In this document: positions 1-16,635 of the stretch, one piece after another
Position numbering within the stretch: the first letter of the stretch is position 1
How the letters are laid out: each line of letters starts with the position of its first letter
Assembly (NCBI GenBank): GCA_964220215.1
Contig: CAXPTH010000029.1
Span: 1 to 16,635 of the forward strand
Reading direction: 5' to 3'
DNA from: Alteromonas sp.
Lineage (GTDB): Bacteria; Margulisbacteria; Marinamargulisbacteria; UBA6595
Length of the DNA: 16,635 nucleotides
Translations under genes and position numbers: made by a program
Notes under the pieces: generated by a model
Database searches by the model: none
What the model saw: the letters and a program-made list of their open reading frames with translations, nothing else
What the model was told of the DNA's origin: nothing

Positions 1-13
1 GGAGTTTAGAAAC

Positions 14-42
14 TGGCCAAAACGGGCATTGGTTGGTATACT
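14..42 (+). promoter_or_regulatory. Putative sigma70 promoter antisense to peptide ORF 1
   Basis: TGGCCA (14-19), 17-bp spacer, TATACT (37-42) with extended -10 TG at 34-35. The -10 is conserved in unit 2. Confidence 0.65.
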
Positions 43-48
43 GAGTGC

Positions 49-245
49 AGTACCTGCCCAATGGGAGACAGGATTTTGGTTAGAAGAAACTGGCAGTTTT
101 CTCAAAAATCAATGCCAGTTCTTCTAAAATATTAAACATTAATTTCAATATTAATAATACTAAGAATAGATACTTAATAATCTTTTCTAACATTGACATC
201 ACCTCCTAAAACATGGATATGTTGTTGAGGTGTGGCGAAAGCCAG
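49..245 (+). ncRNA. Candidate antisense (antitoxin-like) RNA 1; ends approximate
   Basis: Lies downstream of the 14-42 promoter and is complementary to the whole peptide ORF and its SD. Hairpins at 53-72, 80-127 and 200-232, plus TGGC-GAAA-GCCA (GNRA tetraloop) at 233-244. Confidence 0.5.
80..193 (-). CDS. 37-aa hydrophobic peptide MLEKIIKYLFLVLLILKLMFNILEELALIFEKTASFF, type I toxin-like
   Basis: Manual translation. SD AGGAGGT (207-201) lies 7 nt before ATG 193, with TAA at 82-80. Length and frame are conserved in the paralog at 533-646. Confidence 0.8.
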   Translation of the reverse strand: MLEKIIKYLFLVLLILKLMFNILEELALIFEKTASFF

Positions 246-247
246 AA

Positions 248-388
248 CTAGGCCCCTAAATCCCCTAAAGGGGACTTTTGTGCATTTGGTTTGTTGAAAT
301 TATTTTATTTAAACTTGACCCAATGCTATGGTGTTGTCTAAACGTCACGCTCAACCACAAGTCCCCTTTAGGGGATTTAGGGGCCTAG
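248..388. mobile_element. 141-bp MITE/REPIN-like element, copy A
   Basis: Perfect 30-bp terminal inverted repeats ctaggcccctaaatcccctaaaggggactt (248-277 / 359-388). The 81-bp interior is homologous to the reverse complement of the copy C interior. Confidence 0.85.
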
Positions 389-454
389 GGAATAAGTGTC
401 TAGGTGTATTTAGGGGCCTAGGGAATAAGTGCCTAGGTGTATTTAGGTGCCTAG
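375..454. repeat. 33-bp tandem repeat (about 2.4 copies) derived from the element terminus
   Basis: atttaggggcctagggaataagtg(t/c)ctaggtgt at 375-407 and 408-440, then partial atttaggtgcctag at 441-454. Confidence 0.9.
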
Positions 455-467
455 TGAGTTTAGAAAC

Positions 468-496
468 TGGCCCAAACGGGCATTGGTTGGTATACT
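468..496 (+). promoter_or_regulatory. Putative sigma70 promoter antisense to peptide ORF 2
   Basis: TGGCCC (468-473), 17 bp, TATACT (491-496) with extended TG at 488-489. Confidence 0.6.
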
Positions 497-502
497 AAAT
501 AC

Positions 503-698
503 AGTACCTGCCCAATGGGAGACAGGGTTTTTTTAGAAGAGACTGGTCAAGGCCGCTATAACCGTTGCCAGCTCTTCTAGGATTTTAAACACTAATTTCA
601 ATATTAATAATACTGAGAATAGATACTTAATAATCTTTTCTAGCATGGTCATCACCTCCTAAAACATGGATATGTTGTTGAGGTGTGGCGAAAGCCAG
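503..698 (+). ncRNA. Candidate antisense (antitoxin-like) RNA 2; ends approximate
   Basis: Same hairpins as RNA 1, including a compensatory A-T to G-C change in the 534-579 stem and the terminal GAAA tetraloop hairpin. Confidence 0.5.
533..646 (-). CDS. 37-aa hydrophobic peptide MLEKIIKYLFSVLLILKLVFKILEELATVIAALTSLF, type I toxin-like
   Basis: Manual translation. SD AGGAGGT (660-654) lies 7 nt before ATG 646, with TAA at 535-533. 26/37 residues are identical to the 80-193 peptide, with 4 synonymous codon changes. Confidence 0.8.
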   Translation of the reverse strand: MLEKIIKYLFSVLLILKLVFKILEELATVIAALTSLF

Positions 699-731
699 CC
701 CATTGTCGTCAGCCGGTGCTGACTAAACCAA

Positions 732-760
732 AGTATATCAAAGCGCCCTTGCTTAGACAA
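732..760 (-). promoter_or_regulatory. Putative sigma70 promoter for the peptide mRNA
   Basis: Minus strand TTGTCT (760-755), 17 bp, TATACT (737-732) with extended TG. The predicted start near 725 is followed directly by a 6-bp hairpin (708-723). Confidence 0.65.
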
Positions 761-918
761 ACAAAAATTCGGTTTAATATAATTTTTTATTTTTATTACG
801 TTAAATACAAACGGCTGTTCATCTGGCAAAATCCGTGGCTTATGCCGTCATTAATGTTACACTAATACGTATCAGTTTCGAATGAAGAATAAAACAGCGC
901 AGTGCAGGAGTTGGGCGT

Positions 919-13741: not shown

Positions 13742-13853
13742 AGTTACTAGTTTAGCATAGATGGGGGGTCTACTATAAGGGTCTCCGGCCTGGTCTTTAG
13801 TTCTTGAATAGCTAAGTTGGTGGGTGCACTTTTTCTTAACTGGGGGCAGTTTG

Positions 13854-13901
13854 CCTGGGCCCCTAAATCCCTAGGCCCCTAAGTCCCTAGGCCCCTAAAT
13901 C
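13854..13901. repeat. 3 x 16-bp tandem repeat of the element terminus
   Basis: cctgggcccctaaatc / cctaggcccctaagtc / cctaggcccctaaatc. Confidence 0.9.
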
Positions 13902-13994
13902 CCCTAAAGGGGACTTTTATGCTTTTGGATTGTTAACAACTACTGTATATTGAGATTGTATTACAAGTCCCCTTTAGGGGATTTAGGGGCCTAG
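13887..13994. mobile_element. 108-bp MITE/REPIN-like element, copy B (shorter interior)
   Basis: Same perfect 30-bp TIRs (13887-13916 / 13965-13994). The 48-bp interior starts ttatgcttttggattgttaaca, in the same orientation as copy A. Confidence 0.85.
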
Positions 13995-14017
13995 GGGAGT
14001 TTGTGCTCTTCAGCAGC

Positions 14018-14249: not shown

Positions 14250-14933
14250 TCACCGGCGCGGGAGCGGTTGGAATCGATTAACGGTATGCAGACGATCTAT
14301 TTGTTGTCTAACGGATCGAATTATTGGTTCTATAGCTTCCATTCGATCATCAATACTCATTCTTGTGTTTTCTTGAGGATATAGAGTCTCAATGCGTTGA
14401 TTCACGTTATTCAGTACAATCCGTTGGTCTGTAAAATTAGATATTCCGCTCATTACTTCAAATTCGTCGGTGGTGGCAAGTTCGTTATATATTTGATTTA
14501 AATGCTGGTAAGCTGAACTAAGCGTTCGTATAATTTCACGCACATCATTAATTATATACTCGACAAGCTCTAAATTATTTCTTATTGAAATTAAAATATC
14601 TTTATTGTCTAAAAACGACTCTATTTTATTTTGGACTAAACCGTTTAAGGGAATTTTTTTTGACGCCAATAAATTTATGTAAGTACAAAAAATAAAATTT
14701 ATACGTTTTTCTTCATTTAATTTTTGATTTTCATGCTCACTCAATCTTGTCGCTATTATACTCACTGTACTTCTTAAATCCTCTAAATTTGTAAATATTG
14801 TAGCAATATCGCGCCCTTTTTGGCGACTTTTATCTCTTATAGGTGCTCCGGGGGCGGCAACAGAACTACGGGTTCTATCTAATCTACGTGGTGTTACAGG
14901 TGGTGTTACAGGTGGTGTTACATAAGTGCTCAT
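14250..14933 (-). CDS. Hypothetical AT-rich helical/coiled-coil protein with Pro-rich N-terminus
   Basis: 227-aa ORF with SD GAGGAG just upstream of ATG 14933 and its own promoter. No recognisable family. Confidence 0.8.
   Translation of the reverse strand: MSTYVTPPVTPPVTPRRLDRTRSSVAAPGAPIRDKSRQKGRDIATIFTNLEDLRSTVSIIATRLSEHENQKLNEEKRINFIFCTYINLLASKKIPLNGLVQNKIESFLDNKDILISIRNNLELVEYIINDVREIIRTLSSAYQHLNQIYNELATTDEFEVMSGISNFTDQRIVLNNVNQRIETLYPQENTRMSIDDRMEAIEPIIRSVRQQIDRLHTVNRFQPLPRR
14888..14922. repeat. 3 x 12-bp coding tandem repeat (VTPP units)
   Basis: gtggtgttaca(g) at 14888, 14900 and 14912, encoding VTPPVTPPVTP. Confidence 0.9.
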
Positions 14934-15092: not shown

Positions 15093-15218
15093 CATGAAAT
15101 ACCTCTAATTCAGTCAAGAAAAAAAAGAGCGTTTTTCAGTCTTTTTAGCTGGGGTCAGTGTATCTAGGCCCCTATACCTAGGCCCCTAAATCCCCTAAAG
15201 GGGACTTGTGGTTGGGCG
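15093..15218. repeat. Direct repeat (85-bp leader plus start of element), paired with 16511-16635
   Basis: Identical to 16511-16635 except A8 versus A7 in one run. Confidence 0.95.
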
Positions 15219-15318
15219 AGGCGTTTAGGCGGCACCATAGCAATGGGTTAAGTTTAGATGCAGTTGTGTTAACAACCCAAAAGCATAAAAGTCCCCGTTA
15301 GGGGATTTAGGGGCCTGG
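15178..15318. mobile_element. 141-bp MITE/REPIN-like element, copy C (interior inverted relative to A)
   Basis: TIRs 15178-15207 / 15289-15318, with 2 mismatches in the right arm. The interior reverse complement aligns ungapped to the copy A interior at roughly three-quarters identity. Confidence 0.85.
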
Positions 15319-15391
15319 GGTGACTAGGGTCGCCAACAACATAGTGGTAGTAATTGCTGAAGGATTTTGGCTAGTGTCTGAATGGTTTTTT

Positions 15392-16263
15392 TCAATTTTT
15401 GTGTTGCAAAGAGATTTTATTTTGGCTGGTAAGGATAAGGTTGAGAATAGTGTCTAATTGTTGCTGAAGATCATCTGATATATCGATGTTAGAATCGCTG
15501 ATAAGGTCTAAAATAGTGTCTAATTGTGATATAGGATTTTCTTTGGTATCAGTGTCAGCAGAACAGATGGTATGATAGAGAATCAGGTTTAATTTTTGCT
15601 GAAGATCATCTGATATATTGGTGTTAGAACTGATGGGATGTTTGAAAATAGCGTCTAATTGTGACTCAAGATTCTTCAAACGGTCCAAATACTTTTCATT
15701 GTTAGCACAACTTGTATTTTCTTGAGCAATTATGTTCTTCATGGATTCGATAGCGGCGCTACATTCATTAAGGATATCCCAGTCGAAATAATTATTGTTG
15801 TCGACTACTGCACTTATAATGTCACAAGCTGTGCTAAGATGTTCGTCCGAATTATAATCTTCATTTTTGAGGCAAAGGTAGAGTGCGATCATTAACGCAT
15901 AGTTAAGTTGCTTCTCATCAATGTAATCAATCGCCACACGCTTAAATTTTTCTAAATTGTCATCAGCATTCAAATTTTCTTCTAATTTTTTTTCAAGAAT
16001 TTCTTGGAGATTTTCGATGTTTTGTCCATCATGTTCAGATGTTTTAGAATCATTATTATCACTACAATCAGAAGGAGTTTTTGGTGGTGAAGCGGGGCGG
16101 GGAGATTGGTTCAAAATAATTATGAGGGGTATAGCAGGTGATAGTGGTTTTATCGTTGGGGGGGGTCCACATTGATTTGGCCATCGAGCCCTGTGGTATT
16201 GTAGAGATCCGTACAACAACTGCCAAGTAAGCAATTAGCCGCAGCTTGGATTGTACTAAGCAT
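15392..16263 (-). pseudogene. Hypothetical acidic protein interrupted by a frameshift at a C8 tract (phase-variable, pseudogene or sequencing error)
   Basis: SD GAGGAGGAG plus ATG 16263 gives a 37-aa ORF ending just after C8 (+ strand G 16158-16165). One more C joins it to the long frame ending at 15392, giving 290 aa. Confidence 0.75.
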
Positions 16264-16510: not shown

Positions 16511-16635
16511 CATGAAATACCTCTAATTCAGTCAAGAAAAAAAGAGCGTTTTTCAGTCTTTTTAGCTGGGGTCAGTGTATCTAGGCCCCTATACCTAGGC
16601 CCCTAAATCCCCTAAAGGGGACTTGTGGTTGGGCG
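16511..16635. repeat. Direct repeat paired with 15093-15218, truncated by the window end
   Basis: See 15093-15218. Confidence 0.95.
16595..16635. mobile_element. MITE/REPIN-like element, copy D (partial)
   Basis: Left TIR 16595-16624 followed by gtggttgggcg, as in copy C. Confidence 0.8.

Follow-up and report, generated by a model that had tools for sequence, protein, structure and literature searches.

The full copies of a small duplicated module at the start of the window are probably chromosomal type I toxin–antitoxin (TA) loci, of an unnamed family set apart from the named families with which we compared them. The window is the whole 16,635-nucleotide stretch of DNA analysed here, and comprises all of contig C29 of a 1.19-Mb genome that is 82% complete. 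An S1-domain protein encoded nearby has its closest named relatives among Margulisbacteria records. A type I interpretation had been put forward in a preliminary description of this DNA, and it is supported by every hallmark that can be tested computationally: the peptide, the Shine–Dalgarno (SD) sequence, the RNA fold, the convergent promoter and the duplication. Class features given in the available parts of PMC8594479 and PMC2887945 served as membership criteria. Of these features, the module has a protein of 20–60 aa with a membrane-spanning stretch (37 aa and under selection), an SD that the primary mRNA is predicted to hide by pairing with an anti-SD, an mRNA of 150–400 nt with a 5' stem-loop and a 5'–3' interaction (about 230 nt predicted), and tandem or dispersed lineage-specific duplication, which is common in the class and not defining. 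Toxicity, action at the membrane, the antisense RNA and its length, and the role of the truncated copies are inferred.

Unit 1 (positions 2–245) and unit 2 (456–698) are 87.7% identical over 244 nt, which agrees with the two paralogous units of about 244 bp described earlier. Their earlier designation as tandem modules stands for unit 2, which is full, and fails for unit 1. This duplicate is truncated at its 5' end, where the sense promoter and 5' hairpin are missing along with the 5' arm of the long-range helix; its ORF, SD hairpin and antisense promoter are retained. Position 1 is both the start of the window and a contig end, so the array is interrupted there and may extend further. A third copy, 79% identical, lies between housekeeping genes on contig C15, giving three copies in the window genome (G000). 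The two units are separated by a repeat that we take to be REPIN-like; its core occurs in 21 exact copies genome-wide, and the repeat is found on at least nine contigs, as against two for the module. No promoter is visible upstream of unit 1, as had been noted before, because the REPIN-like element has replaced its 5' end. Read-through from unit 2 into unit 1 is only one option; another is that unit 1 is a silent toxin copy that still makes a putative antisense RNA.

One exact-pattern scan of metagenomes returned nine loci on seven contigs. The five of these contigs that extend into the flanking transporter and enolase genes belong to the same species, being ~99% identical to the window there. 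At the window locus these conspecific contigs carry from one to five copies (one in L011, at least three in L009, five in L013), and their arrays alternate full copies, with promoter and 5' hairpin, with copies that start directly after a REP arm, unit 1 being among the latter. Beyond the array, L013 4300–6873 and the left flank of L011 diverge after a short common stretch; such strain-specific DNA indicates that the array borders a variable region. The neighbourhood is not conserved, the copies on C15 and in two further genomes described below (G005 and G015) lying amid unrelated genes.

In the window, the copies and a dicarboxylate symporter gene (919–2100) are oriented head to head. The 11/12 promoter of that gene (754–783, plus strand) overlaps the sense promoter of unit 2 back to back (window 732–783). 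The best relatives of the symporter are found in other phyla (~60%, versus 33–35% in congeners), a hint of transfer. More REP/REPIN-like copies occur in the window at 13851–13996, 15120–15320 and 16537–16635. They bracket two AT-rich orphan ORFs (14250–14933 and 15392–16234) with no Pfam match above cut-off, and the same region contains exact repeats of 99 nt and 33 nt, 1417 nt apart.

Table 1. Coordinates of the array features in the window.
Feature	Position	Strand	Remarks
Antisense promoter, unit 1	14–42	+	TGGCCA-17-TG-TATACT; p 0.002; putative start near 49
Two 3' hairpins, unit 1 (53–72, 38–53)	38–72	−	Unit 2 counterpart 492–526
ORF of unit 1, 37-aa paralogue	80–193	−	Sequence, selection
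Stop hairpin, unit 1	80–127	−	Fold prediction
Anti-SD/SD hairpin, unit 1	200–232	−	Fold prediction
REP/REPIN-like repeat (presumed class)	246–455		Inverted arms 248–280 and 356–388, plus 33-nt tandem tail
Antisense promoter, unit 2	468–496	+	Weak -35, extended -10; 9 points, p 0.078; putative start near 503
Long-range helix, 3' arm, unit 2	513–519	−	Compensatory G-C to A-U in C15
ORF of unit 2, 37-aa amphipathic hydrophobic peptide, putative toxin	533–646	−	Sequence, hydropathy, selection
Hairpin over codons 23–37 and stop, unit 2	534–579	−	12 bp; loop formed by codons 28–34
Anti-SD/SD hairpin, unit 2	653–685	−	Fold prediction
Small invariant 4-bp hairpin	686–697	−	Just 5' of anti-SD; unit 1 counterpart 233–244
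Long-range helix, 5' arm	699–705	−	Unit 2 only; lost in unit 1
5' terminal mRNA hairpin	708–723	−	Fold prediction; C15 retains it, with G-U in place of A-U
Sense (toxin mRNA) sigma-70-like promoter	732–760	−	TTGTCT-17-TG-TATACT, extended -10; p 0.045 versus shuffles

The two ORFs are real, selected genes for small membrane peptides. Both are hydrophobic, 37 codons long and on the minus strand (193..80 and 646..533), with 26 of 37 residues identical; the codon differences comprise the 4 synonymous changes already described and 11 non-synonymous ones. The 23 complete copies read (15 distinct once overlapping loci are removed; one further copy is cut by a contig end) comprise seven different ORF alleles, every one of 37 codons, whereas indels occur in the flanks. 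Codons 2–27 are under purifying selection (pN/pS 0.17–0.29), with values of 0.049/0.231 between units 1 and 2, 0.123/0.422 between unit 1 and C15, and 0.068/0.41 between unit 2 and C15, so that synonymous changes exceed non-synonymous ones 3–6 fold per site. Codons 28–34, which form the loop of an RNA hairpin, are hypervariable.

The best 19-residue hydropathy of the peptides is 2.0–2.4, and their polar residues cluster on one helical face (p 0.007–0.015; TisB 0.038). Among 51 short ORFs (15–70 aa) behind GGAGG+ATG in the genome, only units 1 and 2 and their counterpart on C15 combine a GRAVY above 1.3 with an upstream anti-SD. The preliminary description had regarded a lack of ORF conservation, or a match to a known non-toxin family, as evidence against a toxin; the ORF is conserved, and Pfam and NCBIfam gave no such match. 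In one database entry for the C15 peptide (P0019) a TGA stop is read as W, giving 67 aa, a read-through that is probably a gene-calling artefact.

The mRNA, predicted to start near 724 and to be about 230 nt long, has a fold z of -5.3, with 0 of 200 shuffles as stable; the opposite strand also folds better than its shuffles (z -3.3). The predicted fold contains the 5' hairpin reported earlier and the AGGAGGT SD held in a CACCTC/GAGGTG hairpin in both units, together with a 7-bp 5'–3' long-range helix (699–705/513–519) that had been missed and whose 3' arm overlaps an alternative hairpin (507–526). The 6-bp anti-SD/SD helix is predicted to be invariant in five of five aligned copies. Opening the SD is predicted to cost 8–10 kcal/mol in all 5' and 3' truncations tried (12 variants of unit 2), none of which frees it.

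Across five full copies, 99% of 195 cells of this structure are paired, compared with 37–54% in slid controls. Both partners have changed in two pairs, of which one belongs to the long-range helix and the other to the stop hairpin, where unit 2 differs from unit 1 by one compensatory change. A shuffle control for this covariation is not clearly beaten, the observed values being attained in 32 of 500 shuffles, as there are only five sequences and these are related. The sense strand is favoured by G-U changes in the 5', stop and 3' hairpins. Under the alignment register used, two elements break in C15: the inner helix of the SD loop (sense strand) and the last 3' hairpin.

The minus-strand promoter claimed for unit 2 was recovered (760–732), and in C15 the sense promoter matches at only 8 of 12 positions (p 0.66). 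Of the convergent plus-strand promoters claimed earlier, that of unit 1 was recovered, and that of unit 2 has a weaker -35 and is not listed by a stock scan. All five modules of the window peptide type have an antisense promoter 36–49 nt past the stop (p 0.002, 0.078, 0.031, 0.018 and 0.032). Over all 11 modules described here, the antisense direction outscores the same stretch read forwards in ten and ties in one; in the six modules of a second peptide type the matches are individually not significant (p 0.05–0.5). A scan for mRNA terminators gave only a weak site at 526–507, and no clear terminator of the antisense RNA was found in the full modules.

Part of positions 1–900 is listed for 24 sequencing runs, 22 of them RNA libraries and two of unknown kind. 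Setting aside 18 RNA runs and the two of unknown kind, which have small shares, we examined four RNA runs from four studies as contigs, which give neither strand nor level, and one or both modules are covered in all four studies (X1, 38–245; X2, 39–279; X3, 54–203 and 627–708; X4, 456–859). These contigs may derive from DNA, since one spans 456–859 across both promoters. In two studies the contig starts at 38 and at 39, respectively, where the last hairpin of the sense strand has its foot, which weakly hints at an mRNA 3' end near 38 in unit 1. In X3, two ends, one near 56 and the other at 708, are bordered by letters that we take to be adapter; they are oppositely oriented, and each falls 3 nt beyond the long-range helix. 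These ends hint at RNA from both strands if the library is stranded, and otherwise at one piece of ~200 nt. We rejected the X2 contig end at 279 as a terminator, as REP copies diverge there and a branch in the assembly graph is the simpler explanation, and likewise did not accept the read depth of contigs as an expression measure.

Database searches gave no name to the peptide. Pfam returned no family for either window peptide, and NCBIfam nothing beyond one match at E 0.13 in 2 of 11 members. Protein databases hold nine clusters, 70–100% identical and unnamed or labelled 'hypothetical', the same nine being returned twice by word-index searches; HMMER against 1.84 billion representative proteins recovered only the species' own two clusters. 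The suggestion that the peptide family might be new is thereby strengthened, as it also shows no match to TisB, DinQ, Ibs, Ldr, ShoB or ZorO. Outside the species, blastn found the module in 0 of 60 related genomes, the peptide profile gave no credible match in 145 genomes (a single partial match, E 0.009), and a back-translated profile none among 112 candidates. Exact patterns had no match in the genome contig collection; in viral contigs they gave none, and then one chance match inside a coding gene. The module is absent from the two congeneric genomes searched (77% and 89% complete). A closer relative, G146 (S1-domain protein 94% identical), has no module and is uninformative, since the start of the flanking transporter is missing there as well. 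Searches with the transporter and with enolase yielded nothing that bears on the module. Rfam gave sub-threshold chance matches only. The available content of eight supplementary files of PMC2887945 had no match to three family-specific words of 5–6 residues. Among literature titles and the opening parts of abstracts we found no type I system for Margulisbacteria or Marinamargulisbacteria; the literature searched tied no type I system to REPINs, and the literature on DinQ-like homologues and cyanobacterial type I systems does not describe the module.

Relatives emerged from the RNA anatomy. The SD-hairpin pattern matched in 13 of 55 genomes of the class, and reading all 18 loci yielded a hydrophobic ORF of 32 aa in G005 and two paralogous modules in G015, genomes that represent two other families of the class. 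G005 has a second copy, 83% identical, and both copies have TTGACA-17-TAGTAT facing back 47–49 nt past the stop. G005 retains the SD at the same spacing, and the amphipathic pattern persists from family to family. In total, G005 holds two modules plus one of a second type and G015 five, which with the window genome makes 11. The second type encodes peptides of 29–31 aa (G005 C330, L148, and the five G015 loci L108, L117, L214, L215 and L216) and has the same SD and stop hairpins, with an apparent ATC, GTC or GTG at the expected start; its profile retrieved a single database protein, which is an extended gene call for one of the six modules. The G005 C330 module adjoins a tRNA gene.

Covariance models link these modules in both directions, which points to a small family at the level of the class. 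A model from the two G005 copies had window-family modules on the sense strand as its top four matches in 34 kb, the best at 20.8 bits end to end against a best background of 12.6; the other four modules scored 7.8–9.9, within background. A model built from the window family alone had as its top four in 36 kb G005 C269 (38 bits), G005 C330, G015 C4 and G005 C78, with background at or below 12 and G015 C1 not listed. When aligned, the long-range helix still pairs across families with largely different arms. In filtered whole-genome searches neither model crossed over between G000 and G005, and the protein likeness between them is weak (hhalign probability 18.5; shuffle p 0.0007–0.066), so that homology is likely and not certain.

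Searches that scored few candidates per genome found modules in three of the 55 genomes of the class and in none of the phylum's other 91. A looser SD-hairpin pattern over 146 genomes stayed at background level, 3 of 43 loci read having a short hydrophobic ORF. Loci G120:C7, G120:C16 and G125:C186 (L197–L199), from another class, proved to be a different double-hairpin REP-like repeat before housekeeping genes and not a TA module, and matches of model R1 in G033, G029 and G047 contained no module. An isolated 3' part of a G005 module, with a long-range helix arm and an antisense promoter, lies at G005:C269:2378–2451 (L124), ~700 nt upstream of a full module, with a PIN-like gene on one side and a pair of small genes on the other, as labelled from their translations.

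The module fits the general definition of type I systems, including duplication, SD locking, orientation and narrow distribution (PMC8594479, PMC2887945, PMC6733600, PMC8167048, PMC5367252). The available text of PMC2887945 covers tandem duplication in type I loci, that of PMC6733600 SD locking and long-distance pairing in type I mRNAs, and that of PMC8167048 the orientations of toxin and antitoxin genes. The module resembles ibs/sib in layout and TisB, DinQ and ZorO in peptide shape, and is a member of none of these families.

Of the layouts named earlier, ibs/sib is the closest, rather than ldr/rdl or aapA/isoA. As in ibs/sib, the antisense promoter lies beyond the stop and reads across the toxin ORF (sibA, 512–655, covers ibsA, 550–609), and tandem copies share one intergenic region; for type I mRNAs, PMC6733600 also cites 5'–3' long-distance pairing, with Han et al. 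2010 among the sources. In contrast, Ibs peptides have 18–19 aa and are uniformly hydrophobic, whereas the window peptide has 37 aa and is amphipathic, with no sequence likeness (p 0.18–0.63). SIB_RNA (RF00113) had no match in the module, although the control matched. The SD of the module is predicted to be hidden by a local upstream anti-SD, with the long-range helix excluding the SD. With neither an 18–19-aa peptide nor RF00113, the module falls outside Ibs/Sib.

With TisB, DinQ, ZorO and ShoB the window peptides share a single amphipathic helix with a narrow charged face, and TisB and DinQ are the nearest named clusters in the ESM Atlas (0.77–0.80, at lead level only). Pairwise likeness to these four is not significant (p 0.05–0.69), whereas TisB, DinQ and ZorO reach p ~0.01 or less among themselves; hhalign against TisB and DinQ gave a probability of about 2. 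The antitoxins of these systems are encoded beside the gene, whereas the promoter of the module reads across it. TisB/IstR was rejected, as PF13939 matched the TisB positive control and not the window peptides and the layout differs from that of the divergent, trans-acting IstR. DinQ/AgrB was rejected because there is no DinQ likeness and the Agr RNAs lie upstream; for DinQ only the pairwise tests apply, since the Pfam copy gave no family for DinQ itself. ZorO/OrzO and ShoB/OhsC were rejected because the window peptides show no likeness and those antitoxins are encoded apart from the ORF. The G005 peptides gave p 0.013–0.027 against ZorO and ShoB in three of six comparisons (uncorrected), a likeness at the level of shape.

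Ldr/Rdl and Fst show no peptide likeness, and Rdl lies over the 5' leader. With aapA/IsoA and hok/Sok, as described in the available part of PMC6733600, the module shares in its predicted fold an inert primary mRNA, an upstream anti-SD hairpin and a 5'–3' interaction. In those systems, as the same text describes, long-distance pairing hides the SD and 3' trimming activates the mRNA, whereas the predicted SD access of the module is unchanged by trimming. IsoA also lies over the 5' leader, and AapA and Hok, compared through Pfam and NCBIfam scans only, gave no match. A convergent antisense promoter downstream of the toxin ORF is shared with txpA/RatA, Fst/RNAII and SprA1, as set out in the accessible part of PMC8167048; the module differs in having no Pfam, NCBIfam or Rfam match and no likeness to LdrA, a homologue of Fst. 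If the antisense RNA ended at the stop-codon hairpin (~75 nt), the layout would be of the 3'-overlap kind of txpA, Fst and SprA1.

What is observed is regulation plus a membrane helix, from which toxicity is a further step. A regulated, non-toxic small membrane protein, such as a modulator of a transporter or complex, controlled by the mRNA fold and a cis-antisense RNA, would share both properties; the head-to-head symporter gene would suit it, and the multicopy candidate YhzE-2 proved non-toxic (available part of PMC2887945). We nevertheless consider such a modulator unlikely, since the neighbours are unconserved (the C15, G005 and G015 copies lie among unrelated genes) and layered silencing with dispersed and tandem duplication fits a toxin better (PMC2887945, PMC6733600). 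The far-above-shuffle folding of both strands (z -5.3 and -3.3) could also mean that what functions here is a structured non-coding RNA, read from one strand or the other, with the ORF a by-product of RNA constraint. Watson–Crick covariation is identical on either strand, the variable codons track the RNA loop, and one run suggests an abundant piece of ~200 nt. This reading is very improbable in view of the 3–6-fold synonymous excess per site in codons 2–27, the frame and length kept in all alleles, the SD and spacing kept in G005 and the amphipathic pattern across families.

The variation from one to five copies, their alternation with the repeat and the existence of truncated copies raise the further question of whether the module is a passenger of the REPIN-like repeat, mobile or decaying, with an incidental ORF and no current function. 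The modules of C15, G005 and G015 have no such repeat in the stretches read, the repeat occurs on at least nine contigs and the module on two, and selection and covariation both argue for function; we regard the passenger reading as barely credible overall, largely refuted for full modules, and one that may still hold for truncated copies alone.

Taking the full modules as type I TA loci, we propose that the minus-strand promoter would make an mRNA of roughly 230 nt that folds, as modelled and in part supported by covariation, into a 5' hairpin, a 7-bp helix between leader and post-stop region, an SD-hiding hairpin and an ORF-end hairpin. Because of this fold the mRNA would be poorly translated. 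The product, 37 aa long and forming a single amphipathic helix that is charged on one face, would enter the inner membrane and, by likeness of shape and not homology, may depolarise it as TisB, DinQ and ZorO do. From the conserved promoter ~37 nt past the stop, transcription would run back over the gene in the manner of sib over ibs, giving an antisense RNA that would neutralise the mRNA by pairing. Unit 1 is a duplicate whose 5' end was replaced by the REPIN-like repeat, and recombination among repeats may vary the array between one and five copies in different strains. More tentatively, and with considerable doubt, one RNA scaffold might serve at least two unrelated-looking peptide families class-wide, one with ATC, GTC or GTG starts; and in this species, duplication through REPINs might produce an accordion of full and truncated copies, with the truncated ones as antitoxin-only donors and copy number setting the toxin-to-antitoxin dose of each strain.

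Margulisbacteria are an uncultured sister group of Cyanobacteria, and the family looks undescribed, from a marine lineage of this group. Known families of membrane type I toxins are each confined to one phylum, and the available part of PMC5367252 asks whether this is real or a discovery bias. That this family surfaced through its RNA anatomy, having escaped HMM searches of 1.84 billion proteins, speaks for a discovery bias. The 11 modules offer a cheap test of toxicity, and the full and truncated copies, at one to five per strain, form a natural series for studying how such loci duplicate.
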